41,688 nt of DNA, from the UHGV virus genome UHGV-0112358; one strand, 5' to 3'. Below are positions 3,409 to 36,276 of the stretch, one piece after another (position 1 is the first letter of the stretch; each line of letters opens with the position of its first letter). The position numbers and the translations under genes are program-made. Under the pieces are notes generated by a model. That model worked only from the letters and a program-made list of their open reading frames with translations, ran no database searches and had not been told where the DNA came from. The stretch comes from a virus.

Positions 3409-4116
3409 TTATGCCGCCTGTTTTAGCTCGTTAACTCTGATGTTCATTACCTGAACGCATTTAGCCTGCGCCTCCTCGTTTCCAGCCATTAATTGCCAGT
3501 CACGCTGATAACGCTCGATGAGTTTTTTCTTGTCAGTTTCTGTTGACGCATAATCGCTGAAGTCTTTCAGGATTTGTTCGCAGTCAACCGATGGAGATTT
3601 CTGGTTGGTATTTTCTGGTGATGGTTTGTTATCTGATGCTGGGATTGCCCATCCCGGCAGTGATGGAGGGAGCCAGTAAAATCCTGTTCCATCCTTCAGT
3701 TTTGCCCTGTGCCACCCCTGCTTTTTATCGAGAGATGTTTGTGCGAAACCTTCCTCAAGGTTATACAGATACCGACCGATTCCCCACTGAACGGCAGCGC
3801 GCTTCATTGCACCGGAACGACCACCTTTGACGGCTTCTACCTGCGTGTTTTCAGCAGCATCCCATTTGGTTACCCATTCGGAATCAATCTTTATTGATAT
3901 GCCGCATTCAACGCCGCCGTTGTTGGGAATATCGCGGTATTCATTGCGCCATCCTGCTTTGCCGCAAACATCGTCCAGGCGTTTCATGATTGCCCGGTTC
4001 GTGACATAAGCCAGCACCATAGCCCACACTTTGCCATCGCGTGTTTTACCGCTTTGCTGTATTCGCCATTCGATATCTTCAGGGCTGAATGGCTCATCGA
4101 ATTTATTCAAATCCAT
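3409..4116 (-). CDS. Rad52/Sak-type single-strand annealing protein
   Basis: 235 aa with motif AAVQWGIGRYLY; SD GAGGTG; position upstream of ssb in recombination module. Confidence 0.7.
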   Translation of the reverse strand: MDLNKFDEPFSPEDIEWRIQQSGKTRDGKVWAMVLAYVTNRAIMKRLDDVCGKAGWRNEYRDIPNNGGVECGISIKIDSEWVTKWDAAENTQVEAVKGGRSGAMKRAAVQWGIGRYLYNLEEGFAQTSLDKKQGWHRAKLKDGTGFYWLPPSLPGWAIPASDNKPSPENTNQKSPSVDCEQILKDFSDYASTETDKKKLIERYQRDWQLMAGNEEAQAKCVQVMNIRVNELKQAA

Positions 4117-4215
4117 AATTCACCTCAGAATGGACACGGCCCAAGGAAATAACGCTGATTTAATACTTCGACTCGGGACAAATTAAGGCATACCCGCATT
4201 CCTTCGCGGTCACCA

Positions 4216-4374
4216 TTATGGCGATACCAGAGAGCTTTCTGCGTGTACATGCGTCTCTGTAACTTGCTCTCCTTCACCGTGGTTGCAAGTGACATGAATA
4301 TCTCCTTCGTTACCGATTAAATCTTTCATCTGACGAATGAATTCTTCGTCTGACCAGTTATCTGTAAAACTCAT
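4216..4374 (-). CDS. small hypothetical protein (52 aa)
   Basis: ATG overlaps Kil-like stop (ATGA); ORF below track cutoff. Confidence 0.3.
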   Translation of the reverse strand: MSFTDNWSDEEFIRQMKDLIGNEGDIHVTCNHGEGEQVTETHVHAESSLVSP

Positions 4375-4523
4375 TTCCTGCGATACCACGGAAGGTTGAT
4401 AGCTGATTTCATCGCTTTATTTGCTTCAAGCCACATTTTTGAATCACCAATAAAGCTGGCTATTACTGCTTTGTTTTGTGCTGCACGAAGCATCTGGTGA
4501 TTGATGGCTATTTCATTGCGCAT
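4371..4523 (-). CDS. kil: Kil-like host-killing peptide (50 aa)
   Basis: MRNEIAINHQMLRAAQNKAVIASFIGDSKMW... resembles recalled lambda Kil (IATFIGDEKM); directly downstream of cIII as in lambda. Confidence 0.45.
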   Translation of the reverse strand: MRNEIAINHQMLRAAQNKAVIASFIGDSKMWLEANKAMKSAINLPWYRRK

Positions 4524-4639
4524 AATAAGACCTCAACTCTTTTCCATCCGTCACGTAATTTACGGGTGATTCGTTCAAGTAAAGATTCATTTAGTTGGAA
4601 GGCACCCATGCGAGCGCCTCCCGCGATTGCGTAAATCAT
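4508..4639 (-). CDS. cIII: cIII-like protease inhibitor (43 aa)
   Basis: MIYAIAGGARMGAFQLNESLLERITRKLRDGWKR matches recalled lambda CIII core; below track cutoff. Confidence 0.75.
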   Translation of the reverse strand: MIYAIAGGARMGAFQLNESLLERITRKLRDGWKRVEVLLCAMK

Positions 4640-4662
4640 GGGTGGTTCCTTATGTTGGTTTA

Positions 4663-5631
4663 TTAGTAGGTTATTTTTGTTGCGAATACTTCGCCTTTTA
4701 CGATGGCTGTTATGATATTTTTAGCAACATCTTCTGATGCGCCAACCTTGATAATGTCAGCAAGTATTTTGTTATTTACTTCTTTCCGGTGAGCTTTATC
4801 CTTTGCTCTACGCTCTTCTTCGTCCTTGATTCTTTTTTCTTCTGCTATTCTGGCTTGCTCTTTTGCTTCAGCCTCGCGCCGGATTCGTTCAGCCTCCTCC
4901 TGTGCTTTTCGGCGTTCTGCTTCAATTGCCGCCTGCTTTTCTCTTTCAGCTCGTTCTGCTGCCTCTTTTGCTTCGCGCTGTGCTCGTTGCTCGGCTTCAA
5001 TGCGTTCACGCTCTGCACGTTCCGCTGCGGCCTTAGCTTCTGCTTCTCGCCTTGCTGCTGCTTCAATTTCGGCTTTTGCCTTTGCTTCGGCTTCTGCTCT
5101 GGCTTTCTCTTCAGCTTCTCTTTTTAAGCGTTCTTCATGCTCTCGCTTTTCCTGCTCCGCTTTGAGTCTTGCCTCTTCTCTTTGGCGGTCAAATTCGCGA
5201 TCCATCAAAATCGCTATTTCATGGTCAGACTCAATTTGCTTTGCGAGAGCTTCAGCTGCTGCCTTAGCTTCTTCTTCGGCTTTAATCCGTGCCTGTTCCT
5301 CCTCATAATCAGTAAGAGGCTGGCGCGCCTTGGCTTTCAGTTCATCAAGGCGATCGCGCACTGTCTTGCGGTTAGCATCAATTAGCTTTGGAATTTCCTT
5401 CAGTTCAGCAACAAGGTCTTTGCCAAGACCATCGAGATATGTTTTCGTCTGCGCAACTTTATACGCCAGAGAAGCGATCTCCTTTCTGCCCTTTGCCGTT
5501 GTGATATCAGGCACAAAGGACATAACTTCACGTTCAACCTTTTGGAGAATTTCTTCAATCTGGTCGGCAGACTGAAATACAGTCATCGCATTTGCTTTTT
5601 CAATAACAACTAAATCTGTTACTTCACTCAT
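4663..5631 (-). CDS. coiled-coil protein with E/A/K/R-rich repeat core, unknown function
   Basis: ATG at 5631 with SD GGAGG; ~170-aa low-complexity charged central region between globular ends; track ORF extends to 5727. Confidence 0.6.
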   Translation of the reverse strand: MSEVTDLVVIEKANAMTVFQSADQIEEILQKVEREVMSFVPDITTAKGRKEIASLAYKVAQTKTYLDGLGKDLVAELKEIPKLIDANRKTVRDRLDELKAKARQPLTDYEEEQARIKAEEEAKAAAEALAKQIESDHEIAILMDREFDRQREEARLKAEQEKREHEERLKREAEEKARAEAEAKAKAEIEAAARREAEAKAAAERAERERIEAEQRAQREAKEAAERAEREKQAAIEAERRKAQEEAERIRREAEAKEQARIAEEKRIKDEEERRAKDKAHRKEVNNKILADIIKVGASEDVAKNIITAIVKGEVFATKITY

Positions 5632-5643
5632 ATATCCTCCATC

Positions 5644-5670
5644 AAAAAAAATCGCCCTCACACTGGAGGG
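5644..5670 (-). terminator. rho-independent terminator inside pL operon (tL-like)
   Basis: Minus strand CCCTC-cagtgt-GAGGG then T8, immediately before the RBS of the coiled-coil gene. Confidence 0.5.
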
Positions 5671-5922
5671 AAAAGAAGATTTCCAATAATCAGAACAAGT
5701 CGGCTCCTGTTTAGTTACGAGCGACATTGCTCACATAGCAGACTCGTAAATCTGCTATAGGCGCTTATTCGCATCGCATGACAACATCAAATTTTTCGAG
5801 ATTACTTTGTCGCAACAATCCTTTTTCTACGCGGTCAGCTTTTCTATAATTATCAAATTAGAAATGTTTAATTACTTCTTTCGTTTCTCGCTCTATAACT
5901 TCAACAATGTATTTCTTATTCA

Positions 5923-6201
5923 TCATTCTTCCCCCAGAGCCTTGCTGATGGCTGCCTTGGCTCGTTTGTATTCGGTTAACTCTCTGCACCCTTCGTCATG
6001 CTCGTAAATGAAGACAAGCTCTTGCAGTGCTTCAAGCAAATCAGGAGCTGCTGCTATCAGTAGCGCATCCTCCCTTTCATTTCTTGTTGCTGCTTCAATG
6101 TATGTGTCACCAATCGTCACACCATGGAACGTAGTCATCATCTCGTTGACGTTTCTAACCGTGTACTTCCATTTACCAGGCGTACCCTTAAACTCTTTCA
6201 T
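5923..6201 (-). CDS. hypothetical protein (92 aa)
   Basis: ATG at 6201 preceded by GAGGTGG; track ORF starts at GTG 6207. Confidence 0.45.
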   Translation of the reverse strand: MKEFKGTPGKWKYTVRNVNEMMTTFHGVTIGDTYIEAATRNEREDALLIAAAPDLLEALQELVFIYEHDEGCRELTEYKRAKAAISKALGEE

Positions 6202-6221
6202 ATCCACCTCTGTTGTTTATG

Positions 6222-6245
6222 CCAAAAATAAAGGCCGACTATGCG
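6222..6245 (-). terminator. rho-independent terminator (tL1-like)
   Basis: Minus strand AGGCCG-catagt-CGGCCT followed by TTTATTTTT. Confidence 0.45.
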
Positions 6246-6253
6246 GCCTGAAA

Positions 6254-6565
6254 TTACTTAACCAATGATGCCGCATATTCAATTAGGAATAACTTAGGTG
6301 CAAGCCAAATCTTCAACCATTCGAAATTGAAGGCAATAATTAAAACACCCATAATTGAGCCAAATATAGGAACAAATACAGTGCATATATCGTAATAAAC
6401 CGAAGATATAAAATGTTCATCATTTGGACGTCCATCGAAAGACGTCCATCTCTCGCCATTATTTCTTGCCGTTCTTGCAAAACTAGGAAGTTTAATTGCT
6501 GCAATTAAAAGCAACAATCCAGCCACTTGGAAAAGTGCGCTATGGACAAAACTCCATATTAGCAA
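6254..6565 (-). CDS. putative small membrane protein, no ATG/GTG start (TTG at 6565)
   Basis: Open frame 6254..6679 directly after N; hydrophobic segments; only in-frame start is TTG without clear SD. Confidence 0.3.
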   Translation of the reverse strand: MLIWSFVHSALFQVAGLLLLIAAIKLPSFARTARNNGERWTSFDGRPNDEHFISSVYYDICTVFVPIFGSIMGVLIIAFNFEWLKIWLAPKLFLIEYAASLVK

Positions 6566-6684
6566 CTGATGAACAACATCAGGAATCTGTGCCTGGCTAA
6601 ATGAAACAGCCGCGTCTATTCCATTGCTGGCTTTTTGCAGTAGTTCTACGAGAATCTTGTTTGCTTGTTCTTCTACATCTCACC

Positions 6685-7020
6685 TCAAATAAGTGGTTTG
6701 CTGCCTAATTTCATTTTTTGGCGACCAACACAAGTCACCCCCATTTCACTGCGTGGCTTGCGGTAGTAAATACGGTTCTGTTTACGCTCGACTTCTTCTG
6801 CCTTCTTGCAGCGAAGGCTTCCGAGTGATGCTGCTTTTTCAGAAAGGCTTAAACGCTTTCTTGGGGCTTCCTGAACAGGTTCCTCACTGTCTGTGCCGAA
6901 GATCGAATCGATGATGTTGCATATAGCATCACGCTCGATAGCCAGCTTTCTGCGCCGCTCATGACGGCGAGTTTTGGCATTTCCTGCAAATGTTGATTTC
7001 CCGTACACGATTACCGTCAT
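6685..7020 (-). CDS. N: N-like transcription antiterminator
   Basis: Arg-rich motif GNAKTRRHERRRKLAIERD (P22 gp24-like) and C-terminus ...GVTCVGRQKMKLGSKPLI (lambda N-like); ATG 7020 with SD GAGGA. Confidence 0.8.
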   Translation of the reverse strand: MTVIVYGKSTFAGNAKTRRHERRRKLAIERDAICNIIDSIFGTDSEEPVQEAPRKRLSLSEKAASLGSLRCKKAEEVERKQNRIYYRKPRSEMGVTCVGRQKMKLGSKPLI

Positions 7021-7139
7021 GATGTTTTCCTCATGTGAAATGGCTTTGGTGGTGATGCGCCAGATGCTGATCTTCTGGTTGCTGTCGTTGCAGCTGCAAT
7101 TCACATCACCGCCAAACCCATCTCGTTTGGTATCTGTTT

Positions 7140-7366: not shown

Positions 7367-8026
7367 TTAACTAAATGTCTCTTCAGGCCACTGGCTGGCG
7401 ATAACTTTCCCTACTACGGAACAGCTATCATTGCATGGGATCATTGGATATTGCGGGTTTAGTGGTTGTAGGAACACCTGACCGCTATCCCTGATCAGTT
7501 TCTTGAAGGTAAACTCGTCACCACCAAGTCTGGCTATGCAGAAATCACCTGGCTCAACAGCCTGCTCAGGGTCAACGAGAATTAACATCCCGTCAGGAAA
7601 GCTTGGCTTGGATCCTGTTGGTGCGGTCATGGAATTACCTTCAACTTCAAGCCAAAACGCACAATCACTGGCTTTTTTGGTTGTGCTGACCCATCTCTCC
7701 GCATCGCCTTTGGTAAAGGTTCTAAGCTCAGGCGAGAACATCCCGGCCTGAACATGAGAAAAAACAGGGTACTCATATTGTTTTTTAACGGGGGCAGATG
7801 AGTATTCGCCAACAGGTGAAAATGTACCGTCGTGGTTGAATGAGACGTTATCAATACCAAGGTATTTAAACACCACACCAATCTCGTCAAGAGATGGATG
7901 ACGAGATCCGCGCAACCAGTGACCAATTCCACCCTGCGTCATACCAAGCTCTTCAGCTAACTTCTCTTGAGTTATGCCGAGCTCTTTCATTCTGGATCTA
8001 GCCAGTTCATACCATTTCATTTTCAT
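7367..8026 (-). CDS. cI: CI-type prophage repressor (HTH N-terminus, lambda-like S24 C-terminal domain)
   Basis: C-terminal half near-identical to recalled lambda CI ([15 protein letters not shown]...GNSM...ASQWPEETF); N-terminal HTH differs; start MKMKW at 8026, track ORF extends to 8101. Confidence 0.9.
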
Positions 8027-8137
8027 ACCCTTATTATTACGCTCTGTACTAAAACCATCCATGCACAAGATGTATTTTTTGTTTGCATTCCAAAAGTACA
8101 TATCGTATTATTGTTTCATGGTTACTATGGAGGGCAT
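8027..8137. promoter_or_regulatory. OR region: pR promoter and candidate operators
   Basis: pR -35 TTGCAT (8083-8088), 17-nt spacer, -10 TATTAT (8106-8111); operator-like dyads ATTACGCTCTGTACT (8036-8050) and AGTACATATCGTATT (8095-8109). Confidence 0.45.
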
Positions 8138-11983: not shown

Positions 11984-12384
11984 CAATGGATTATTCACAG
12001 TTAAGTGATTTTGAAATTAACGTGGCGGTATTCGAATCCATTCATAACGGATCACCGGATTACAAAGAAGGTGAGAATGGCGATATGGTGTTTGTCTCAT
12101 TTGAGGGAGACATTGTAAACGGAGACGCAGTTGAAGTAGAAGTTGAGCGCGGATCCTTTAACCCATGCGTAAACCCAGCAGACGCATGGCCGATTATCAC
12201 TGAAAACAAAATTAGCACCATGTGGATGACAGCGGAAAAAGAATGGTGCGCATGGTCAGGAGGTGATTTAGAGGAAGGTTGTTGGGAATGGGAAAATATT
12301 CCTGACTACTGCTTCTGCGGTGAATCGCCTCTCCGCGCAGCCATGATTGTATTTCTCATGATGCAGGACGCCAATAATGCTTAG
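11980..12384 (+). CDS. hypothetical nin-region protein
   Basis: ATG overlaps ninE stop; acidic/Trp-rich 134-aa product; track ORF starts at GTG 11944. Confidence 0.5.
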
Positions 12385-12553
12385 CCCATCCCAATCCCTT
12401 CAATACCAGAAAGAAAGCGTCGAGCGAGCTTTAACGTGCGCTAACTGCGGTCAGAAGCTGCATGTGCTGGAAGTTCACATGTGTGAGCACTGCTGCGCAG
12501 AACTGATGAGCGATCCGAATAGCTCAATGTACGAGGAAGAAGACGATGAATGA
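12377..12553 (+). CDS. ninF: NinF (Cys-rich, 58 aa)
   Basis: [43 protein letters not shown] matches recalled lambda NinF; below track cutoff. Confidence 0.6.
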   Translation: MLSPSQSLQYQKESVERALTCANCGQKLHVLEVHMCEHCCAELMSDPNSSMYEEEDDE

Positions 12554-13268
12554 GTTAATAAATGGCAATGCCATCAAAATGACAAGCATTGAAATCGCTG
12601 AGTTGGTGGGTAAGCGTCATGACAATGTGAAACGTACCATCGAAACGCTGGCTAAAAATGGTGTTATCCGGCTTCCTCAAATTGAGGTTTCCGAAAGAAT
12701 CAATAACTTAGGGTTCAATGTTCAGTACGAGCATTACGTCTTCGAGGGCGAACAAGGTAAGCGAGACAGTATTGTCGTTGTAGCCCAGTTGTCGCCGGAA
12801 TTCACGGCTCGCCTTGTTGACCGTTGGCGAGAGCTTGAAGAAGCTGCGGTTAATATCCCAAAAACGCTACCAGAAGCGTTGCGCCTTGCTGCTGACCTTG
12901 CTGAGCAGAAAATGCAACTGGAAAACCAGCTCGCAATTGCCGCACCTAAAGTTGAGTTTGCCGATCGCGTTGGCGAGGCCAGCGGAATTTTGATTGGAAA
13001 CTTTGCAAAGGTTGTTGGAATTGGTCCAAACAAACTGTTTGCGTGGATGCGCGATCACAAAATCCTTATTGCTTCAGGTTCCCGGCGCAATGTGCCAATG
13101 CAGGAATATATGGATCGCGGCTATTTCACAGTGAAAGAAACAGCGTTCAACACAAATCACGGAATACAGATATCGTTCACCACAAAAATCACCGGGCGTG
13201 GTCAACAGTGGCTGACCAGAAGGCTGCTCTATAGCGGAATGCTGAAAGTAACAGGGGAGGCTGCTTAA
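12546..13268 (+). CDS. Rha-family regulatory / antirepressor-like protein
   Basis: N-terminal motif SIEIAELVGKRHDNVKRTIETL; C-terminal antirepressor-like domain; SD GAGGAAG. Confidence 0.65.
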   Translation: MNELINGNAIKMTSIEIAELVGKRHDNVKRTIETLAKNGVIRLPQIEVSERINNLGFNVQYEHYVFEGEQGKRDSIVVVAQLSPEFTARLVDRWRELEEAAVNIPKTLPEALRLAADLAEQKMQLENQLAIAAPKVEFADRVGEASGILIGNFAKVVGIGPNKLFAWMRDHKILIASGSRRNVPMQEYMDRGYFTVKETAFNTNHGIQISFTTKITGRGQQWLTRRLLYSGMLKVTGEAA

Positions 13269-13558
13269 TGGCTAAACTACGCAAAGAAGCGCGCGGCAGA
13301 GAATGCCAGGTACGTATTTACGGCGTATGCAATGGCAACCCTGAAACTACAGTTCTGGCACATTACCGGATGGCTGGAATTTGCGGAACGGGAATGAAGC
13401 CTGACGACCTGATCGGAGCATGGGCTTGTAGCGCGTGTCACGATGAAATCGACCGACGCACCCATAAACTCGACAACAAAGACGCCAGACTTTACCACCT
13501 GGAAGGCGTGATCAGGACGCAGGCGATACTGCTGAAGGAGGGGAAGATTAAGCCATGA
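13268..13558 (+). CDS. YbcO-like small Cys-rich protein (DUF1364-like)
   Basis: 96 aa with Cys/His pattern (ECQVRIYGVC...CSACHDE); sits before rusA as in lambdoid nin regions. Confidence 0.5.
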   Translation: MAKLRKEARGRECQVRIYGVCNGNPETTVLAHYRMAGICGTGMKPDDLIGAWACSACHDEIDRRTHKLDNKDARLYHLEGVIRTQAILLKEGKIKP

Positions 13559-13917
13559 ACGAATATCAGTTTGTGCTTCCATACCCGCCGTCGGTGAACA
13601 CCTACTGGCGAAGACGGGGAAGCCAATACTACATCAGCGATAAAGGCCAGAAATACCGAAAAGACGTTCAGCAAATCATCCGCCAACTTAAGTTAGACAT
13701 TTTCACCAAATCACGACTCCGCATCAAAGTCATCGCAGACGTTCCAGACTCCCGCCGCCGCGACCTCGACAACATCCTGAAAGGTTTACTCGACTCCCTT
13801 ATCCACGCCGGATTTGCGGAAGACGACGAGCAATTCGATGACATTCGCGTAATTCGTGGTGTGAAAGTACCAGGCGGACGGCTTGGAATAAAAATCACCG
13901 AACTGGAGAACGCATGA
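13555..13917 (+). CDS. rusA: RusA Holliday-junction resolvase
   Basis: 120 aa, MNEYQFVLPYPPSVNTYWRRRG...DLDNILKGLLDSL typical RusA. Confidence 0.85.
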   Translation: MNEYQFVLPYPPSVNTYWRRRGSQYYISDKGQKYRKDVQQIIRQLKLDIFTKSRLRIKVIADVPDSRRRDLDNILKGLLDSLIHAGFAEDDEQFDDIRVIRGVKVPGGRLGIKITELENA

Positions 13918-14102
13918 ACGCCACAATTCAAACGATACCAGAGCTTCTTATCCAGACACGAGGCAATCAGACCGAAGTGGCGAGGATGCTTTCCTGTGCA
14001 AGAGGAACAGTGCTCAAGTACAACCGAGACAGCAAAGGCGAGCGTCACGTAATAGTTAACGGCGTCCTGATGGTCAAACAAGGCAAGAGGGGAAGACGAT
14101 GA
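13914..14102 (+). CDS. ninH: NinH
   Basis: ...YGNQTEVARMLSCARGTVLKYNRD... resembles recalled lambda NinH. Confidence 0.65.
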   Translation: MNATIQTIPELLIQTRGNQTEVARMLSCARGTVLKYNRDSKGERHVIVNGVLMVKQGKRGRR

Positions 14103-14722
14103 GACTCGAAAGCGTAGCTAAATTTCATTCGCCAAAAAGCCCGATGATGAGCGACTCACCACGGGCTACGGCTTCTGACTCTCTTTCCGGTACTGATGTG
14201 ATGGCTGCTATGGGGATGGCGCAATCACAAGCCGGATTCGGAATGGCTGCATTCTGTGGTAAGCACGAACTCAGCCAGAACGACAAACAAAAGGCTATCA
14301 ACTATCTGATGCAATTTGCACACAAGGTATCGGGGAAATACCGTGGCGTGGCAAAGCTTGAAGGAAATACTAAGGCAAAGGTACTGCAAGTGCTCGCAAC
14401 ATTCGCTTATGCGGATTATTGCCGTAGTGCCGCGACGCCGGGCGCAAGATGCAGAGATTGCCACGGTACAGGCCGTGCGGTTGATATAGCCAAAACGGAG
14501 CAGTGGGGGAGAGTTGTTGAGAAAGAGTGCGGAAGATGCAAAGGTGTCGGCTATTCAAGAATGCCAGCAAGCGCCGCATATCGCGCTGTAACGATGCTAA
14601 TCCCAAACCTTACTCAACCCACCTGGTCACGCACTGTTAAGCCGCTGTATGACGCTCTGGTGGTGCAATGCCACAAAGAAGAGTCAATTGCAGACAACAT
14701 TTTGAATGCGGTCACACGTTAG
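14099..14722 (+). CDS. Q: late-gene antiterminator Q
   Basis: 207 aa, MRLESVAKFHSPKSPMMSDSP... with zinc-finger CRDCHGTG...CGRCKG; near-identical to recalled lambda Q. Confidence 0.9.
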   Translation: MRLESVAKFHSPKSPMMSDSPRATASDSLSGTDVMAAMGMAQSQAGFGMAAFCGKHELSQNDKQKAINYLMQFAHKVSGKYRGVAKLEGNTKAKVLQVLATFAYADYCRSAATPGARCRDCHGTGRAVDIAKTEQWGRVVEKECGRCKGVGYSRMPASAAYRAVTMLIPNLTQPTWSRTVKPLYDALVVQCHKEESIADNILNAVTR

Positions 14723-14764
14723 CGGCATGATTGCCACGGATGGCAACATATTAACGACATGATA

Positions 14765-14793
14765 TTGACTTTTTGAATAAAGTTGGGTAAATT
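14765..14793 (+). promoter_or_regulatory. late promoter pR' with qut region
   Basis: -35 TTGACT (14765-14770), 17-nt spacer, -10 TAAATT (14788-14793), lambda-like. Confidence 0.6.
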
Positions 14794-14829
14794 TGACTCA
14801 ACGATGGATAAATGCACTCGTTAAATAAA

Positions 14830-14858
14830 GCCCTGAGTTAATAGCTCGGGGCTTTTTG
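14830..14858 (+). terminator. tR'-like terminator of short pR' leader RNA
   Basis: GCCCTGAG-ttaatag-CTCGGGGC followed by TTTTT about 35 nt after predicted start. Confidence 0.6.
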
Positions 14859-15832
14859 CGTTTGCACAACAGGTAAGAGCATTCTCCCTTATGGGGCTTG
14901 GCTTAAATGCACCGAGTGCTCTTATCGTTGTGGCAGCACAACGATAGTTTTCGTCAGAGTTGGCGACTTTGCGGGTTTTTAGAAACTGACCACAAAGATA
15001 AATGCAAACGATGATTTGATGTTGATGGCGGCCTAAGAAACCAAAGTCACGGGGTCTTCCGATTCCCCGCTACCAAATTCGGCGCAGTGGCCCGCTGTGA
15101 TTAATAATGGGCACCCAATAATGAGAGCGTTGGACAGTGGCGATGAGATTTCGCAACCCAGGAGCCAATAGATCGGGGATAGTGCGCATAATACCGATTG
15201 AGGTGAGTGCTGGAATAAGCATCGGGAGTCATGACCCAACATGATGCGGGAAAGCCAGCCACCGAGAGACCCGGCAGGGTAAACCGGCCTTCCGCTTGGT
15301 TATCAAGCAATAATAGCGCTCTCATTCGTGGGTAACAACGGGCATGTCGCCTTAGTAAATCCCTCAAGGGTGCGACGCATAGACCGGTACTAGCGTCGCC
15401 GTTAGCTCCACGAAACGGAGCGCACAACAGGTAAGAGTATTTGTAGAGTTCGACTCTCTACCGTGGGATTTTTTCCGCGATGCGAGCCATAAATGCTCTT
15501 TCCGTTGTGCTGAATTAAGCGAATGCCGGAAGCAGAACCGGATCACCAAATGCGTACAGGCGTCATCGCCGCCCAGCAACAGCACAACCCAAACTTAGCC
15601 GTAGCCACTGGCTATCCTGAACTCATCAGTGATAGTTATGCTGCGGCCTTCTACGCATGACCTTCGTGAAAGCGGGTGGCAAGAGGCTGCGCTAACAACC
15701 TCCTGCCGTTTTGCCCGTGCATATCGGTCACGAACAAATCTGATTACTAAACACAGTAGCCTGGATTTGTTCTATCAGTAATCGACCTTATTCCTAATTA
15801 AATAGAGCAAATCCCCTTATTGGGGGTAAGAC

Positions 15833-16156
15833 ATGAAGATGCCAGAAAAACATGACCTGTTAGCCGCCATTCTCGCGGCAAAGGAACAAGGCATCGGGGC
15901 AATCCTTGCGTTTGCAATGGCGTACCTTCGCGGCAGATATAATGGCGGTGCGTTTACAAAAACAGTAATCGACGCAACGATGTGCGCCATTATCGCCTGG
16001 TTCATTCGTGACCTTCTCGACTTAGCCGGACTAAGTAGCAATCTCGCTTATATAACGAGCGTGTTCATCGGCTACATCGGTACTGACTCGATTGGTTCGC
16101 TTATCAAACGCTTCGCTGCTAAAAAAGCCGGAGTAGAAGATGGTGGAAATCAATAA
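15833..16156 (+). CDS. S: holin S (dual-start MKM)
   Basis: [34 protein letters not shown]... near-identical to recalled lambda S. Confidence 0.9.
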
Positions 16157-16616
16157 TCAACGTAAGGCGTTCCTCGATATGCTGGCGTGGTCAGAGGGAA
16201 CTGATAACGGACGACAGAAAACCAGAAATCATGGTTATGACGTCATTGTAGGTGGAGAGCTATTCACTGATTACTCCGATCACCCTCGTAAACTTGTCAC
16301 GCTAAACCCAAAACTCAAATCAACAGCAGCCGGTCGCTATCAGCTTCTTTCCCGTTGGTGGGATTCCTATCGTAAGCAGCTTGGCCTGAAAGACTTCTCT
16401 CCGAAAAGCCAAGACGCTGTGGCATTGCAGCAGATTAAAGAGCGTGGCGCTTTACCGATGATTGATCGCGGTGATATCCGTCAGGCTATCGATCGTTGCA
16501 GCAATATCTGGGCTTCACTGCCGGGCGCTGGTTATGGTCAGTTCGAGCATAAGGCTGACAACCTGATTGCAAAATTCAAAGAAGCTGGCGGAACGGTCAG
16601 AGAGATTGAGGTATGA
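16140..16616 (+). CDS. R: endolysin R (lytic transglycosylase)
   Basis: [35 protein letters not shown]... near-identical to recalled lambda R. Confidence 0.9.
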
Positions 16617-17050
16617 GCAGAGTCACCGCGATTATTTCCGCTCTGGTTATCTGCATCATCGTCTGTCTGTCATGGGCTGTTAATCATTACCGTGATAACG
16701 CCATCGCCTACAAAGACCAGCGCGATAAAGCCACGTACATCATCGCTGACATGCAGAAGCGTCAACGTGATGTGGCTGAACTCGATGCCAGATATACAAA
16801 GGAACTTGCTGATGCTAACGCGACTATCGAAAGTCTCCGTGCTGATGTTTCTGCTGGGCGTAAGCGCCTGCAAGTCGCCGCCACCTGTGCAAAGTCAACG
16901 ACCGGAGCCAGCAGCATGGGCGATGGAGAAAGCCCAAGACTTACAGCAGATGCTGAACTCAATTATTACCGTCTCCGAAGTGGGATCGACAGGATAACCG
17001 CGCAGGTTAACTACCTGCAGGAGTACATCAGGACGCAATGCCTTCGATGA
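16613..17050 (+). CDS. Rz: i-spanin Rz
   Basis: [31 protein letters not shown]...; follows R with overlapping start. Confidence 0.85.
16812..16997 (+). CDS. Rz1: o-spanin Rz1 (embedded lipoprotein)
   Basis: Alternate frame inside Rz; [20 protein letters not shown] lipobox then Pro-rich tail; SD AAGGA. Confidence 0.7.
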
Positions 17051-17224
17051 TAGCGATAATTTTACTCATCATCCTTCACATCTGGCTCTGTAGACAGGGT
17101 GGTGATCACTTCTGGAGTGAATCCAGATTAAACATCTCATTGCTGATGCTTGATATTGAGCATCTGGCGCGCGGTAAGGGGCTGCGTTGAGATAAGAGCC
17201 AGTTCATTACAAATACCAGGATTT

Positions 17225-17250
17225 AGCCTCGCATTCGCGGGGCTTTTTAT
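17225..17250 (+). terminator. rho-independent terminator after lysis cassette
   Basis: GCCTCGC-attc-GCGGGGC followed by TTTTTAT. Confidence 0.5.
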
Positions 17251-17392
17251 ATCTGAATTTCACAGCGCATCTCACGCGCATATTAACGAGAGCCTTTCAG
17301 TAAGCGAGCCTGAGAAATGCCGTTATAGGTGGCGACCTCTCTCGGGCGGCTTTTCTGTGAGACAGGCTCACTTTCTAAAAGGTAAAGACGCT

Positions 17393-17911
17393 ATGAATCA
17401 TCAATTGGCTAATCTCGATTTCCGGGACATGGTGGTTGTTTCTGGTGATCGCGTGATCACAACCTCCCGCAAGGTAGCAGCTTACTTCGACAAGCAGCAT
17501 CACCACATCATTCAGAAAATCGAAAAGCTAGACTGTTCGGATGAATTTCTAACCAGCAACTTTTCGCGGGTTACCTATGAACACAAGGGTAATCAGTATG
17601 TTGAATATGAAATTTCCAAAGACGGCGCTATGTACATCATCATGTCGTTTACCGGCAAAAAAGCTGCCGCCATCAAAGAGGCGTTTATCAAAGCATTTAA
17701 TTGGATGCGTGACAGGCTGATGGAGATGGCTCACTCATACCAAAGAGAGCACAACGAGTTAATGCTGGAGTTCATGAAGGAAAAGGATGTTGCCAGTATG
17801 TCAGGACGCTTGCTGAACCGCTGGGGCAGGATCAAAAAACCGCAACTCATAGCAAGAATCAAAATGCTTGAGCAGCAGGCGCAAATATCGATCCCCGGAC
17901 TGCCAAAGTGA
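17393..17911 (+). CDS. Rha-family phage regulatory protein
   Basis: MNHQLANLDFRDMVVVSGDRVITTSRKVAAYFDKQHHHIIQKIEKL...FTGKKAAAIKEAFIKAFNWM; track ORF starts upstream at 17150. Confidence 0.65.
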   Translation: MNHQLANLDFRDMVVVSGDRVITTSRKVAAYFDKQHHHIIQKIEKLDCSDEFLTSNFSRVTYEHKGNQYVEYEISKDGAMYIIMSFTGKKAAAIKEAFIKAFNWMRDRLMEMAHSYQREHNELMLEFMKEKDVASMSGRLLNRWGRIKKPQLIARIKMLEQQAQISIPGLPK

Positions 17912-29932: not shown

Positions 29933-30147
29933 AGTACCCGTTCATGGAGGAGGAGACTCTTCCGGCAAAACTCGTTAGCCCCGTAAACGTCACACCATCA
30001 ATGAACGCCATTATCTGTTCAGGAAAAGCCACTTATACCGATTTGCAGGAAAGGTTATCTGTTCGTGATATGTATAACCTTCTGGAAATTATCTCGGTGG
30101 AATCATTTAACAAGCGGGTCTGGAATAAACATCAGGAGCAGCGATGA
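29929..30147 (+). CDS. tail chaperone -1 frameshift extension (T-like)
   Basis: Frame is -1 relative to chaperone and open from slippery site 29908-29914; no independent RBS. Confidence 0.55.
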   Translation: MKYPFMEEETLPAKLVSPVNVTPSMNAIICSGKATYTDLQERLSVRDMYNLLEIISVESFNKRVWNKHQEQR

Positions 30148-31919
30148 TTATCAATGAGTTGGCCTACAAGGTCACAATTAAGGCCGATGAATTCCTGAAT
30201 GGAAAACGGAAAGTAAAGCAGGAAGCACAAGACCTTAAAAACGAAATAGAGAGATCTTCATCTGCGATAGAAAGGTCAACAACCTCCTCGATGTCCAAAA
30301 CGGCTAAGGAGACCGACAAAGCTGCTGTTGCAATGAAAGGGTTGACTGCTTCATTTAATGGTTTTTTGGGGCTTTCGACACGCTTTGTGGCTGTTGGCGG
30401 TGTGTTGACTGCCGTAGCCATTGGCATTCATCGTGCATTTGAAAGTACTTCGGAGTCAATTGTAAGAGCCAGTAATATGGGGAGAATGCTTGGAACAAGC
30501 GCCAGTAACGTTCTTGGTACTCAGTATGGATTCTCCCGAATTGGTCAGAACGGCGGCGCGTTCCTTGGGGCACAGATGAGCGCCAGGATGGCGCTTGCCA
30601 ATATAGAAGACCCAACAATTTTCGGCGGACTTACACCGGAGGCTCAGAATTTACTAACAACTGGAGCGAGAACAGGCATTGATATTAGTAAGCTTGGAGG
30701 TAAATCAGAAGATGCTCTGGCGGAATTTCAGAAATATGGGAAGAACCATAACGAGAAACAGTTAATGCAAGTGCTTTCTGCTTTTGGTTATGACCCTAAT
30801 CTTGCCGGGGATATTAAAAGCGGAAAAGCTGTGCAGATGGTATCTGAGGAAGAAAAACGATGGCAGATGACCAAAGAGCAGGAAGAAGCACAGCGCAACA
30901 TTCTTGCTACGACTAAAGCCCTTGACTCGCAATTTGCTCAGGTTAAACAAGAATTAATGGCTACATTTGGCCCTGAAGTGCTTAAAGCTGAACAGGAGTT
31001 TTTAGAGTGGCTGAAAAACAACAAGGGTGACATTGTTGGGTTCTTCAGGAACCTGAGTACAGGTATTGATGGTTTTGTTAAAGCCGTTGGTGGCGCTGGA
31101 AACGCATTGGGCATTCTTGCTGCCATGGCTCTTCTTAGCGGCAAGGGGTTAGGAAGCAAGCTGGGATTAATCGGTGCTGTTGGTATTTTTGGGCAGATGG
31201 TACAAGACCAGTATAAAGATGTTCCTGATGAGATGCGGCCATTCGCATTTCAGCAGCATTGGCTTGAAAGGCTCATTGGGCTGGATTATGACGATCCAAA
31301 TAAAGAGATTCCTCCTAACAAAAATGGTGTCAACAGGCCTGACAGAAACAATAACCCATTAAATCTTAAAGCTACTGGAAACAGAAGAAGAGACAAAGAC
31401 GGATTTGCTCAATACTTCGACCCAGAAGAGGGTTGGGAGGCCGCCAGGAATCAACTGACTCTATACTACAAAAGAGATAAGCTTGATACGTTGCAAGGAA
31501 TAATAAGCAAGTGGGCACCATCCTCAGAAAACAACACAAAGGCGTATATTGACCAGGTTTCTAAGTCTATGGGCGTTGGTGCCAATGATAAGCTAAACCT
31601 CTCAGATCCAGAGGTTATGGCAAAACTTAGCGCCTATATGGCTAGGCATGAAGGTTATCCAGATTGGAAGCGGGGTCTTGATTATGGTAACCCAACGAAA
31701 AATAGCAATGCCGCTTACTACCAAACTCAGCAAAGATTGGCTAATGGATCTGCAAATCAATCCTATACCCAAAGCGTTGTTAACAATTACAACAGCCAGC
31801 ACATAGGAGAGGTAAAGGTAATTGCCAAAACGGATCAATCCTCAAAACTAACCGAAGGATTTAAGGAGTTGAATCGCAGATCATCAGTAAATCAGGCATT
31901 TTCAAGTGCAGTGCCTTAG
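30144..31919 (+). CDS. tail tape measure protein
   Basis: 591 aa with hydrophobic and Gly-rich segments, follows chaperone pair. Confidence 0.65.
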   Translation: MIINELAYKVTIKADEFLNGKRKVKQEAQDLKNEIERSSSAIERSTTSSMSKTAKETDKAAVAMKGLTASFNGFLGLSTRFVAVGGVLTAVAIGIHRAFESTSESIVRASNMGRMLGTSASNVLGTQYGFSRIGQNGGAFLGAQMSARMALANIEDPTIFGGLTPEAQNLLTTGARTGIDISKLGGKSEDALAEFQKYGKNHNEKQLMQVLSAFGYDPNLAGDIKSGKAVQMVSEEEKRWQMTKEQEEAQRNILATTKALDSQFAQVKQELMATFGPEVLKAEQEFLEWLKNNKGDIVGFFRNLSTGIDGFVKAVGGAGNALGILAAMALLSGKGLGSKLGLIGAVGIFGQMVQDQYKDVPDEMRPFAFQQHWLERLIGLDYDDPNKEIPPNKNGVNRPDRNNNPLNLKATGNRRRDKDGFAQYFDPEEGWEAARNQLTLYYKRDKLDTLQGIISKWAPSSENNTKAYIDQVSKSMGVGANDKLNLSDPEVMAKLSAYMARHEGYPDWKRGLDYGNPTKNSNAAYYQTQQRLANGSANQSYTQSVVNNYNSQHIGEVKVIAKTDQSSKLTEGFKELNRRSSVNQAFSSAVP

Positions 31920-31927
31920 CAGATTTG

Positions 31928-32386
31928 CTATTGACTAATTTCCCGCATGAATGCAATTGTTTTTGCCATTTTCTCAGAGTGATCAATTGTCTCAACGAGA
32001 AATTTTCGCGCGGGAGATTGCTCATTCTCGCCTCGGAATGTGGCGTTAATGTTTTGCATTGCTGCATTTTTCCACATGCTTACTTCTTCTATGGATTGCG
32101 ATAATGATGCTGAAGATGCAGCGTCAAAGCATATACCATACGATGAATCTCGTATATCTGACGGTGACTTGCCAATAGCACTAAGTTGATTTCCATACTT
32201 TTTTACCATGTCGTTAGCCATATCCTGACAAACTTCATCAATGCTTTTGCCCATGCCTGCAACATAAGGAGAAGCATCTTTTATTAAAGACATCATTTTT
32301 TCCTTATCTTTGTCGGATGCAGCATAAGCTGCGAGTGATAGAAGAACGGAAGAAAATATTGCTATTGTGAAAAATCTGGATTTCAT
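31928..32386 (-). CDS. secreted/periplasmic protein of unknown function (moron)
   Basis: Signal peptide MKSRFFTIAIFSSVLLSLAAYAASD; SD AGGGGAAAGA; opposite strand to tail genes. Confidence 0.6.
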   Translation of the reverse strand: MKSRFFTIAIFSSVLLSLAAYAASDKDKEKMMSLIKDASPYVAGMGKSIDEVCQDMANDMVKKYGNQLSAIGKSPSDIRDSSYGICFDAASSASLSQSIEEVSMWKNAAMQNINATFRGENEQSPARKFLVETIDHSEKMAKTIAFMREISQ

Positions 32387-32502
32387 TCTTTCCCCTTGTA
32401 ACGTTTCCTATGTTTGTATCCGTTAACTTAAGCAAAAGCACGCAACACTCGGTTTTACGCAGGATACCAGATGATACTGTGTAGTTGGAGTAGTGCGGTT
32501 GC

Positions 32503-32594
32503 AATGCAAGCATTTTGCTTTTGTTTTATGCTTGCTTGTATGTGGGTACAGTGCATATAATGCAAGCATATATCACAGCAAAGGTGCTTGCATT
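32503..32594. promoter_or_regulatory. operator array (4 copies of AATGCAAGCAT) over a consensus promoter
   Basis: Copies at 32503-32514, 32528-32535, 32559-32570, 32585-32594 in alternating orientation; -35 TTGCTT (32532-32537), -10 TATAAT (32556-32561). Confidence 0.5.
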
Positions 32595-33587
32595 ATGACT
32601 GAAAAGAAAAGTGGTGAAGGGAAAGCTAAGGGCGGAATCGCTCGCGCAAAGTCGCTGACTAAAGAGCAGCGTTCTGAAATAGCAAAGAAAGCAGCGGCTG
32701 CAAGATGGAAGGATAAACCATTAATTGCTACGCATAAGGGATCGTTCCAGCATGAATTCGGGATTGATGTTGAGTGCTATGTGTTAAATGATGATAACAA
32801 AACTGCCGTTATTAGCCAGAGAGGCATGGGAGAAGCGATTGGTCTTGGCGAAGGTGGCAGCAGGTTGCCAAAGTTTATTCAGGGGAAAACTATTTCTCAG
32901 TATATCGGGCATGAATTAAGGGCAAAACTTGAAAATCCTCTTATTTTTCAATACAAACAGGTGGGCACGAACACACCAGCTAACCCTGTAATACATGGCT
33001 ACGATGTAACAATCTTAATTGATTTATGTCGAGCAATCTCTAACGCTAAAGCTGAAGGTAAGTTGCTTTCTAGTCAGGAAGGGATTGCTAAGCAAGCCAG
33101 GATAATTATTGATGCATCAGCCAAGGCGGGAATTCAGGGGCTTGTTTATGCTTTGGCAGGGTATGACAGAACAAAAGAAGAAGTAATTCAAGCATATAAG
33201 CGATATGTTGCTGAAGAGGCTCGTGAGTATGAAAGAGAGTTCACCCCTGAACTTTATGAGCATTGGTATCGTCTGTATGGTATAGACAAACCAGTTAGAG
33301 GGCGACCGTGGGCGTTTAAATATCTTACGATAGATCACATTTACTACCCATTAGCCAGAAGTGAAGGAAAGGTATTTAATTTAGCAAAAACGTCAAAAGA
33401 AGAGAAAGGCAGCAAAAACGATAAAATACACCAGTTTTTATCAGAGGTTGGAGTTAAAGCTCTTAGAACCCAAATAGGTAAGGTTACTGGTATTGCAATG
33501 GTTTCTGATACTCGAGAAGAGTATGAGAAATACATAGATGAAAAGGTTATTGGACAAAGAACCATCGACTTAAAAGATAAAGAATAA
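32595..33587 (+). CDS. KGG-motif / P63C-like protein of unknown function
   Basis: ATG 32595 after SD; N-terminus GKAKGGIARAKSLTKEQRSEIAKKAAAARW; track ORF starts upstream at 32493. Confidence 0.55.
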   Translation: MTEKKSGEGKAKGGIARAKSLTKEQRSEIAKKAAAARWKDKPLIATHKGSFQHEFGIDVECYVLNDDNKTAVISQRGMGEAIGLGEGGSRLPKFIQGKTISQYIGHELRAKLENPLIFQYKQVGTNTPANPVIHGYDVTILIDLCRAISNAKAEGKLLSSQEGIAKQARIIIDASAKAGIQGLVYALAGYDRTKEEVIQAYKRYVAEEAREYEREFTPELYEHWYRLYGIDKPVRGRPWAFKYLTIDHIYYPLARSEGKVFNLAKTSKEEKGSKNDKIHQFLSEVGVKALRTQIGKVTGIAMVSDTREEYEKYIDEKVIGQRTIDLKDKE

Positions 33588-33616
33588 GAAAAACCCACCG
33601 TCAGGTGGGTTTTTTG
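33588..33616. terminator. bidirectional terminator between convergent genes
   Basis: A-run, ACCCACC-gtca-GGTGGGT, T-run. Confidence 0.6.
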
Positions 33617-33921
33617 TTTAGCAGTTCTCTTAACTTTTCGTTTTGCTCTCTGAACTTTTCCTGTATTTCTTTTTGCATGGCGATAACCTGGGCTTGAAGT
33701 TGAACTAGCGCATCAACATTTAGCGGAACCGAGACGCTGTTGATTTTGTCTGCTATTTCCCCAAGAGTATTTTCTGCATTCAAGGCATCTTCCAGTATCT
33801 GCACAATCTCTGAGTTCATTGATCTGCCGTTACGTTTAGCTCGTTCAGCTATAGCATCTCGCATTCCGTCAGGAAAACGGAGGTTGAACTTGTCGTAGTC
33901 TTTTACTTGTTTTTCGGCCAT
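33601..33921 (-). CDS. mnt: Mnt/Arc-type ribbon-helix-helix repressor
   Basis: KFNLRFPDGMRDAIAERAKRNGRSMNSEIVQ RHH motif; divergent from arc-ant pair; track ORF extends to 33960. Confidence 0.6.
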   Translation of the reverse strand: MAEKQVKDYDKFNLRFPDGMRDAIAERAKRNGRSMNSEIVQILEDALNAENTLGEIADKINSVSVPLNVDALVQLQAQVIAMQKEIQEKFREQNEKLRELLNKKPT

Positions 33922-33939
33922 TGCAAATCTCTCAAAAAA

Positions 33940-34012
33940 ACCATGGTGCCATATTGCCATACGATTTCAATGGTGGCATTATGGCCTTCATGGCGTCACT
34001 TTGGCACCAAAT
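33940..34012. promoter_or_regulatory. divergent promoter/operator region of immI-like switch
   Basis: Inverted half-sites GGTGCCA / TGGCACC repeated between the mnt-like and arc-like starts. Confidence 0.4.
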
Positions 34013-34027
34013 AAAGGAGATTAGATA

Positions 34028-34201
34028 ATGCAAGATACACTTTTCACTGAGCGCAAAAATATCAAACTCAACCTTCGCCTTCCATCACGGCTGAATGAAG
34101 ACCTTCGCCGCCTGGCGGAAATGGACTGTATATCTCTGAACTCTGCAATTGTTCGTTTGCTGGCAAAAGGTGTTAGGGAAGAGGTGGCGAATGGTCGCTA
34201 A
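34028..34201 (+). CDS. arc: Arc-like ribbon-helix-helix repressor (57 aa)
   Basis: [36 protein letters not shown] motif; SD AAAGGAG; below track cutoff. Confidence 0.6.
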
Positions 34202-35207: not shown

Positions 35208-35291
35208 TGACGCATCTGGTGGTGAAAAAAAACCGCCAGTGTGCAGCTGGCGGCCTATGTCACACCCTTACTACCACATAAGGAATGCCTA

Positions 35292-36020: not shown

Positions 36021-36241
36021 TGGCAAAGAAAAAATATGGCATTATGCCGCCAAGAATCAAAGGAAGAGCCAGGGTAAAAGGCGATGCTGGGAGATATCAC
36101 ATTCTTGGTGTTTTGTGGCATGAGAGAGCTTTAATTTTAAGCAGACCTCATGGGTACATTGAAAAGGTATCTATAGATAGAATTGAGATTCTTCCCCTTA
36201 CTCCTGAAGAAGAAGAAACGTACGGACTTTTTGATAACTAG
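36020..36241 (+). CDS. hypothetical protein (73 aa)
   Basis: ATG overlaps upstream stop; basic N-terminus. Confidence 0.4.
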   Translation: MAKKKYGIMPPRIKGRARVKGDAGRYHILGVLWHERALILSRPHGYIEKVSIDRIEILPLTPEEEETYGLFDN

Positions 36242-36252
36242 CCAATTCACTA

Positions 36253-36276
36253 AACCCAGCTTCGACTGGGTTTTTG
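36253..36276 (+). terminator. rho-independent terminator closing accessory island
   Basis: CCCAG-cttcga-CTGGG followed by TTTTTG. Confidence 0.55.

Follow-up and report, generated by a model that had tools for sequence, protein, structure and literature searches.

P22 Ant is reportedly a trans-acting antirepressor, and its specificity is broad. HK022 Roi is said to bind a site in its own gene beside an IHF site and to inhibit lytic growth in IHF mutants. The Bro-N, KilA-N, pRha, ANT(KilAC), P63C, ORF11CD3 and P22AR domains of DNA-virus regulators have been reported to form one shuffled network. The literature presents Roi and Rha as DNA-binding regulators whose growth phenotypes depend on IHF, and not as repressor binders (PMC4936722, PMC3430580), and the Rha proteins of P22 and phi80 block phage growth in IHF-defective hosts (PMC4936722). 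In the description of phage Gally, roi, rha and mnt are listed among its regulators (PMC9928086), and the “ant moron” has been characterized as a high-flux insertion in late operons (PMC2629481).

The window analysed here, 41,688 nucleotides of the virus genome UHGV-0112358, is very probably a mosaic lambdoid prophage of E. coli type that carries five accessory regulator genes drawn from the shuffled “Bro / KilA / Rha / Ant” domain kit. Its early and lysis regions resemble those of HK022, HK97 and P22, and its tail is of the contractile type. A sequence-only reading had reported four dispersed antirepressor-family genes, identified here as roi (12546–13268), rha (17393–17911), ant in the tail island and the gene directly behind ant (35292–36020). 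All four are confirmed, with domain matches far beyond chance: HMM and fold analysis found antirepressor-kit domains in every gene rather than unrelated families devoid of them. A fifth gene of the kit, overlooked in that reading, encodes a P63C-domain protein (32595–33587), and a scan of the other early-region ORFs gave no additional members. The analysis establishes what the genes are, which domains they contain, how they are ordered relative to other phages and which RNA and promoter elements are conserved. Judged by gene order, each of the five regulator genes occupies a slot that is routine for such genes. None of this is unusual: roi, rha and the complete P22-style ant control cassette are familiar accessory genes at their customary positions, and the observation, while correct, concerns biology that is already known. 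The single lead, a modest one, comes from the conserved Ant-partner gene at 35292–36020.

The roi gene (12546–13268, + strand) encodes a protein of 240 aa whose N-domain is pRha and whose C-domain is ANT/KilAC, an assignment that comes from Pfam and PHROG matches and from identity to the HK022 and Gally proteins. The ANT/KilAC match (E 1.7e-32, 112 bits) lies above the Pfam cut-off, as does that to Phage_pRha (E 5.8e-9, 36.8 bits against a cut-off of 29.9), and the protein also matches PHROG 63 “anti-repressor Ant” (E 2.5e-97). Full-length identity reaches 87% over 241 aa with HK022 Roi (BLASTP) and 98% with Gally Roi. The gene is embedded in the nin operon, where it overlaps ninF (12377–12553) at its start and the following ATG (13268) at its stop. 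The order ninF – roi – ybcO/rusA is common to HK022, Gally, WS4437A-1 and the prophage, in which it lies upstream of Q. An exact match to the IHF consensus WATCAANNNNTTR, one of only two in the window, is located inside roi at 12698–12710 on the + strand (AATCAATAACTTA). It is located at nt 153 of the gene, the same nucleotide as in HK022 and Gally roi, and an identical 13-mer also occurs inside P22 rha; conservation of the site in roi may be a by-product of conserved I-N-N-L codons. The prophage Roi thus shares the pRha + ANT/KilAC architecture, the nin position and the IHF-consensus nucleotide with its HK022, HK97 and Gally counterparts, whereas its residues ~22–62 differ from those of HK022 Roi. 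By orthology to HK022 Roi, it would be a DNA-binding protein with an IHF-dependent effect on lytic growth, and roi would be transcribed with its operon from pR, the early rightward promoter.

The rha gene (17393–17911, + strand) belongs to the late operon, where it follows the lysis cassette and precedes the small terminase gene; it encodes 172 aa with pRha and ORF11CD3 domains. Its product matches Phage_pRha (PF09669; E 1e-23, 84.1 bits against a cut-off of 29.9), ORF11CD3 (E 3.9e-23) and TIGR02681 (75.9 bits against a cut-off of 45.95), and it is 99% identical to Gally Rha and 44% identical to P22 Rha (E 9e-52). The order Rz – rha – terminase is the same in P22 and Gally. A leader of ~340 nt had been proposed for rha. 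Rz stops at 17050, 343 nt before the rha ATG, which bears this out, but only about 200 nt are truly non-coding, because the interval holds a 50-codon ORF (17038–17190, + strand). This ORF is annotated as hypothetical in relatives, has no Pfam match and is absent from P22, where no such ORF separates Rz from the rha leader. The non-coding leader (17191–17392, + strand) contains a terminator-like hairpin at 17225–17244, has an RNA fold z-score of −2.7 and can be aligned with the P22 leader, the hairpin being conserved in both. Besides this P22-like leader, the pRha + ORF11CD3 composition and the post-Rz slot are shared with the Rha proteins of P22 (orf201) and phi80; the annotated P22 Rha is 24 residues longer at the N-terminus than the prophage protein. 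We propose that rha is reached by Q-antiterminated late transcripts that would read through the hairpin at 17225.

The regulators had also been described as paralogous, which is too strong. Only Roi and Rha share a domain, and all-versus-all BLASTP among Roi, Rha, Ant, the 35292–36020 protein and the P63C protein gave no significant pair. Homology is confined to the N-domains of Roi and Rha (hhalign probability 93.9%, E 1.5e-7, from a comparison of non-overlapping sequence sets), and Ant (P22_AR_N/C) and the 35292–36020 protein belong to separate families. As in the shuffled-domain network, every gene here is two-module and built from the kit, and the modules of the 35292–36020 protein are recombined with kit domains elsewhere; in contrast to that network, both of these modules are outside all Pfam and NCBIfam models.

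The ant gene (34272–35207, + strand; true start at the ATG 34272) in the tail island encodes 311 aa with P22_AR_N (E 1.2e-44, 151.5 bits) and P22_AR_C (E 6.3e-30, 103.5 bits) and has 68% full-length identity to P22 Ant. Its cassette shows ~94% DNA identity to the Ant cassettes of O157 Stx phages and is colinear with P22 immI in the order and orientation of mnt, arc, sar and ant. Divergently from arc-ant, a Mnt-like ribbon-helix-helix repressor of 106 aa is encoded at 33601–33921 on the − strand (Pfam Arc E 1.4e-20, 73.3 bits); over its N-terminal 42 aa it has 50% identity with P22 Mnt (E 1e-11), whereas its C-terminal half is different. The first gene of the ant operon (34028–34201, + strand) encodes an Arc-like ribbon-helix-helix protein of 57 aa (Pfam Arc 22.1 bits against a cut-off of 20.4; 30% identity to P22 Arc, E 2e-4), and relatives carry two “Arc family” annotations beside Ant. 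Between these two genes, the control region (33922–34027) contains overlapping, face-to-face promoter-like sites (33954–33982 on the + strand, 34007–33978 on the − strand) and TGGYRCCA palindromes at 33944 and 34002, a geometry resembling P22 Pant/Pmnt. These sites, like the other promoters, operators and terminators named here, were recognized by consensus only, and promoter-like sites showed no enrichment relative to shuffled sequence. A putative sar-like antisense RNA (34206–34272, − strand) covers the ant ribosome-binding site at the same position as P22 sar. It matches Rfam RF00262 over the full model length with 28.6 bits (E 0.0026), below the gathering score of 43, and is predicted to fold into two hairpins (−31.4 kcal/mol, z −6.8) with compensatory changes and a terminator-like hairpin. 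The putative Psar-equivalent promoter (34278–34306, − strand), within the first codons of ant, is identical to the annotated P22 Psar at 28 of 29 nt.

While P22 immI is situated between gene 16 and the tailspike gene, the prophage cassette lies between the tape-measure and the Dit-like/baseplate genes of a contractile-type tail. It also differs from immI in the two extra genes after ant (35292–36020 and 36020–36241) and in the P63C gene and a secreted-protein gene that flank it. For all regulators considered here, we infer expression timing, DNA binding, repressor binding and all phenotypes. By analogy with P22, the Mnt-like repressor would keep the ant promoter off in the lysogen, and infection or derepression would lead to transcription of the operon arc-ant-35292-orf73, which the Arc-like protein would then shut down. 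The sar-like antisense RNA would block ant translation, and Ant would bind and inactivate CI-type repressors in trans.

Layered control or cross-talk with co-resident prophages, as suggested in the sequence-only reading, is reasonable for Ant, whose family is proven to act in trans, but does not extend to Roi and Rha, which are not known to bind repressors. We consider it unlikely that each of the four or five proteins functions as an antirepressor, with differing repressor specificities that provide layered induction and cross-induction of co-resident heteroimmune prophages. All of them carry antirepressor-kit domains, and trans-acting antirepressors with cross-talk between prophages are documented, the principle having been demonstrated for unrelated antirepressors (PMC3121763). 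Moreover, many Stx prophages share the Ant cassette at ~94% DNA identity, and therefore cognate targets could be common in polylysogens. However, antirepressor activity has been demonstrated only for the P22_AR family, to which Ant alone of the five proteins belongs. For Roi and Rha, the descriptions are of a DNA-binding or regulatory role and of IHF-linked phenotypes (PMC4936722, PMC3430580), and their genes are inside lytic operons, so that they would be made only once the repressor is already gone. The resident repressor (7367–8101) is a self-cleaving protein of the S24/LexA type; therefore, induction needs no antirepressor. The LexA box CTGT-N8-ACAG, searched with at most one mismatch, gave 16 matches in comparison to 14 expected, and no LexA box was found near these genes. 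The only LexA-like sites near them, each with one mismatch, are at 17350–17365 in the rha leader and at 32536–32551 in the putative P63C promoter, both without an AT-rich spacer. Control of the genes by LexA, as in Gifsy-type antirepressors, is not supported, as no LexA box was seen upstream of them. The reading as ordinary accessory regulators, among which Ant would be the antirepressor, is thus preferred.

The P63C-domain protein (32595–33587, + strand; Pfam P63C E 1.3e-8; PHROG 2384) is weakly similar to the P63C part of HK022 gp73, and its counterpart in a relative is annotated as “P63C domain-containing protein”. Upstream of its gene, at 32500–32594 on the + strand, a candidate promoter with TATAAT at ~32555 and TGCWWGCA palindromes can be read from the sequence; three of the six TGCWWGCA sites in the window are located there. 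A bidirectional terminator hairpin (33589–33614) is common to the P63C gene and the mnt-like gene. The P63C gene, with a candidate promoter and palindromes of its own, would be an independent unit. At the left end of the tail island, a protein of 152 aa with an apparent N-terminal signal peptide is encoded at 31928–32386 on the − strand; it has no family match and is likely moron cargo.

The moron nature of the tail island, with its independent predicted promoters and terminators, would also suit anti-phage or abortive-infection functions of Rha, Roi, the P63C protein or the 35292–36020 protein, comparable to that of the KilA-N protein BstA. For the KilA-N-like BstA, a role in prophage defence has been proven (bioRxiv 10.1101/2020.07.13.199331), and the phenotypes of Rha and Roi consist in inhibition of phage growth under particular host conditions (PMC4936722). 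Nevertheless, we regard such functions as very improbable: none of the five proteins has a KilA-N domain, the roi and rha genes lie in lytic operons and not under lysogen-type promoters, and the 5027 defence models of PADLOC gave no significant match to the genes (best E 0.004, over short stretches only).

The Ant-partner gene (35292–36020, + strand) encodes a PHROG-1726 protein of 242 aa, predicted to consist of two winged-helix-like modules with long helices between them. The match to PHROG 1726 “anti-repressor” is strong (E 8e-100), whereas neither module matched Pfam or NCBIfam and no curated antirepressor-kit domain (ANT/KilAC, Bro-N, KilA-N, pRha, P22_AR) was detected; hhalign comparison with the ANT and pRha profiles gave probabilities of at most 1%. 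The top Foldseek matches were antirepressor, KilAC and KilA models with E-values from 1.4e-10 to 1e-5, though at a TM of ~0.3. The N- and C-modules match independently among 919 relatives. Fusion partners of the C-module in other proteins are Bro-N, pRha, ORF6N and KilA-N, that of the N-module is ANT/KilAC, and chimeras of these modules with Roi-type and Rha-type halves were found as well. With its two predicted winged-helix-like modules, the protein probably binds DNA. In 22 of 24 species-level loci, the upstream neighbour of the relative has a Bro-N (20) or P22_AR_N (2) domain. The Ant-partner gene pair is kept across genera, and the same cassette is found in Klebsiella, Morganella and phage JEP4. 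A comparable arrangement is known from the Stx phages phi24B and Min27, in which a Bro/Ant-type antirepressor gene is directly followed by the gene of a two-module regulator of ~242 aa; in these phages, however, the pair belongs to the nin region, and the second gene carries an N-half of the Roi type (PMC3430580). The 35292–36020 gene, which is carried along directly downstream of Ant-type genes, is probably co-expressed with ant.

This conservation of the pair across genera also argues against neutral or decaying mosaic cargo that currently has no function, an explanation that we regard as extremely unlikely for the five genes. The region is indeed highly mosaic, at most 66% of the island being present in any single complete E. 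coli genome, and ant morons with degraded ant genes exist (PMC2629481). In the prophage, however, no reading frame is interrupted or shortened in comparison to characterized homologues, and Psar, the sar hairpins with their compensatory changes and the terminators are preserved.

The operon that would comprise ant and its conserved partner ends with an ORF of 73 aa (36020–36241, + strand; PHROG 4977, unknown function), the start of which overlaps the stop of the 35292–36020 gene. It is also found behind the homologous gene in phage JEP4. A terminator-like hairpin (36252–36273, + strand) closes the island just ahead of the Dit-like tail gene at 36292.

The window is a lambdoid prophage. Its early leftward genes on the minus strand encode an anti-RecBCD protein, SSB, a Rad52-type recombinase and N. 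A CI-type repressor with S24 and HTH domains (7367-8101), which is of the self-cleaving type, is followed by Cro/CII, O, a DnaC-like loader, the nin genes, Q (14099-14722), the lysis genes (15833-17050), and then terminase, head and contractile-type tail genes; no tRNA genes were found in the window. The early left region also encodes a 354-aa protein (4663-5727, minus strand) with a long, highly charged repeat region rich in Glu, Ala, Lys and Arg, for which no match was obtained in Pfam, NCBIfam or PADLOC. Gally, HK620, HK022 and HK97 share 95-97% identity with the nin-to-lysis segment, and 80% of the 12.1-37 kb segment is covered at 97.7% identity by the closest complete E. coli prophage.

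Four dispersed genes had been assigned to Rha/Ant-type regulators in the sequence-only reading. All four were confirmed at their given coordinates with strong family matches, and a gene for a P63C-domain protein (32595-33587), missing from that reading, is the fifth member of the domain kit, i.e. the set of shuffled Bro-N, KilA-N, pRha, ANT, P63C, ORF11CD3 and P22AR modules of phage regulators. No further kit members were detected in the scanned early-region ORFs. Relatives carry five (WS4437A-1), four (JEP4) or two (P22, HK97 and HK022) such genes. The best-supported picture is that these are known accessory regulators, each in a mosaic slot where such genes are usually met. The biology of these genes is already known; the earlier observation is confirmed, and its interpretation is supported in part.

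The nin-region gene at 12546-13268 is roi, judged by 98% identity to the Roi protein of Gally and 87% to that of HK022. Its product of 240 amino acids has a strong ANT/KilAC domain (E 1.7e-32) and a weaker N-terminal Phage_pRha domain that is still above the Pfam cut-off. As in relatives, the gene lies between ninF and ybcO/rusA, with start and stop codons overlapping the neighbouring genes. Roi of HK022 was implicated in lytic growth (PMC3430580), and the regulators described for Gally include roi, rha and mnt (PMC9928086). The IHF consensus WATCAANNNNTTR has two exact sites in the whole window, one of them within roi at 12698-12710. This site is at the same nucleotide in roi of the window, of HK022 (nt 788 of the HK022 locus) and of Gally, it falls on the I-N-N/D-L codons of the pRha domain, and its 13-mer recurs unchanged inside P22 rha (P22 nt 39835). 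The conserved consensus fits the IHF-linked biology; conservation of the I-N-N-L codons is another possible cause. It is to these two genes, roi and rha, that IHF-dependent phenotypes are attributed.

The gene downstream of the lysis genes (17393-17911) is rha, as its product of 172 amino acids is 99% identical to Rha of Gally and 44% identical (E 9e-52) to Rha of P22. The protein combines Phage_pRha and ORF11CD3 domains in Pfam and is above the TIGR02681 cut-off, and the position of the gene corresponds to the P22 rha slot. Rha of P22 and phi80 has been described as detrimental to lytic growth when IHF is absent (PMC4936722). The leader of ~340 nt ascribed to rha is correct as a distance, the Rz stop and the ATG being 343 nt apart, but only ~200 nt of it are non-coding. 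The first 153 nt are coding: they form a 50-codon ORF at 17038-17190, which has been annotated in relatives but is lacking in P22. The remaining ~200 nt contain a terminator-like hairpin (17225-17244). Although the two Rha proteins are only 44% identical, the segment 17191-17392 including this hairpin aligns with P22 39426-39645 and may be a conserved regulatory leader. Downstream of Q lie a promoter-like site of the late type (14765-14793) and, at 14827-14855, a tR'-like terminator, and Q-antiterminated late transcripts should therefore reach rha. In E. coli WS4437A-1, the closest relative, a Gp49-family gene (17378-17758) fills the rha slot and a second P63C-domain gene (6139-7050) adjoins the CI repressor, from which it follows that these slots exchange cargo.

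The remaining three kit genes are found in the tail island 31928-36273, which has the tape-measure gene (30144-31919) on one side and a Dit-like gene (36292) on the other. At its left edge, a gene on the minus strand (31928-32386) encodes a 152-aa protein without family match. Its N-terminus looks like a signal peptide, and it is probably a moron product that is secreted or resides in the periplasm. Upstream of the P63C gene (32500-32594) lie a TATAAT of its own at about 32555 and exact TGCWWGCA palindromes at 32505, 32561 and 32585, these palindromes being half of the window's total; the motifs suggest that the gene is an independent, autoregulated unit. It is followed by a bidirectional terminator and then by a module colinear with immI, the immunity I region of P22. 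This module consists of a Mnt-like RHH gene (33601-33921, minus strand; N-terminus 50% identical to P22 Mnt), a control region of 106 bp in which promoter-like sites overlap face to face and TGGYRCCA palindromes occur, an Arc-like RHH gene (57 aa, 34028-34201), a sar-like antisense RNA (34206-34272, minus strand) and ant (34272-35207), whose true start is the ATG at 34272 and whose product contains P22_AR_N and P22_AR_C and is 68% identical to P22 Ant. Rfam gave no matches on the whole window at gathering thresholds, and sar emerged only in a permissive local search, where the RNA covered the full length of the Rfam model with 28.6 bits (E 0.0026), below the gathering score of 43. Inside ant, the counterpart of Psar agrees with P22 in 28 of 29 positions, and the RNA folds into two hairpins (z = -6.8). 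Cassettes with ~94% DNA identity to mnt-arc-ant are present in O157 Stx prophages, where they are annotated as "Ant" and two "Arc family" proteins. This cassette is the "ant moron" that has been described in P22-like phages as inserting at high flux into the late operon (PMC2629481); the tail genes that surround it in the window are of another type.

The genes had been described as paralogous, which goes too far: all-vs-all BLASTP of the five proteins gave no significant pair, and simple paralogy is therefore rejected. The N-terminal domains of Roi and Rha are homologous (hhalign 93.9%, E 1.5e-7, with non-overlapping sequence sets); Ant and the product of the fourth gene, 35292-36020, are separate families. 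The "antirepressor" labels are not equivalent, which matters for annotation. Demonstrated antirepressor activity belongs only to the family of ant, which is accompanied by what would be a full Mnt/Arc/sar control circuit. Roi and rha, predicted DNA-binding regulators with a link to IHF, owe the label to the domains they share.

Layered control and cross-talk with co-resident prophages, also proposed earlier, are plausible for Ant, as the principle of antirepressor cross-talk has been demonstrated (PMC3121763), but unsupported for the other genes; only of Ant are repressors the expected target. With an Ant cassette almost the same as those of Stx phages, derepression of co-resident lambdoid prophages would in principle be possible. 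Such derepression bears on toxin-phage induction in polylysogens, an idea already established in the literature. SOS-wired antirepressors in the style of Gifsy were considered and rejected, because no convincing LexA box was found and the counts equalled chance. The two hits near the genes, each with one mismatch to LexA boxes and lacking the usual AT-rich spacer, are at 17350-17365 in the rha leader and at 32536-32551 upstream of the P63C gene. A defence role received no support from the PADLOC search, and two recent studies of Gifsy defence proved to have no bearing on these domains.

The gene at 35292-36020 (plus strand) had been called antirepressor-like. This label is justified by the domain network and the gene context of its product, not by a curated domain. 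The protein of 242 amino acids matches PHROG 1726, "anti-repressor" (8e-100); no domain was found in Pfam or NCBIfam, a PDB sequence search was empty, and hhalign detected no similarity of its modules to the ANT and pRha profiles. Thousands of relatives exist in Enterobacterales, almost all labelled hypothetical. In an exhaustive HMMER search the N-terminal (~10-110) and C-terminal (~110-240) halves matched independently: relatives of the C-half only have Bro-N, pRha, ORF6N or KilA-N at the N-terminus, relatives of the N-half only have ANT/KilAC at the C-terminus, and some are direct chimeras with Roi-type or Rha-type halves. The AF2 model (pLDDT 82.9) consists of two beta-alpha-alpha-beta-beta-alpha modules with long helices between them, and Foldseek against viral models retrieved "antirepressor", "KilAC" and "KilA" (E 1e-10 to 1e-5) with low TM.

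The gene context was scanned with one genome per species (63 loci). In 24 Enterobacterales loci with a full-length or C-module homologue, the gene directly upstream encodes Bro-N in 20 cases and P22_AR_N in two, usually with an Arc-like ORF before it and a divergent Mnt-like gene. Homologues of orf73 (36020-36241), the next gene in the window, were absent from all 63 loci, and orf73 is therefore outside the conserved pair. Unrelated tail operons host the cassette, under a repressor of either Arc/Mnt-type or S24 CI-type: a Klebsiella locus (3592-6052) has a repressor, a small RHH gene, a Bro-N antirepressor and the 35292-family gene in a siphovirus-type tail operon, and in a Morganella locus (1-2612) the same cassette precedes a Dit-like gene under an S24 repressor. 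We tentatively propose, while regarding it as rather unlikely, that antirepressor cassettes of the immI type have in the 35292 protein a dedicated and widely conserved second component, either a DNA-binding co-factor tuning or targeting antirepression or a second antirepressor with different specificity. If so, the classical immI of P22, which differs in having no 35292-family component, would be an incomplete model of such cassettes. The conserved pairing of an Ant-type gene with this uncharacterised family is the sole new thread of the analysis and a modest lead. In phage JEP4 the cassette is located in the immI slot, behind a Rha-type gene, and a homologue more distantly related is found after NinB, in the nin slot.
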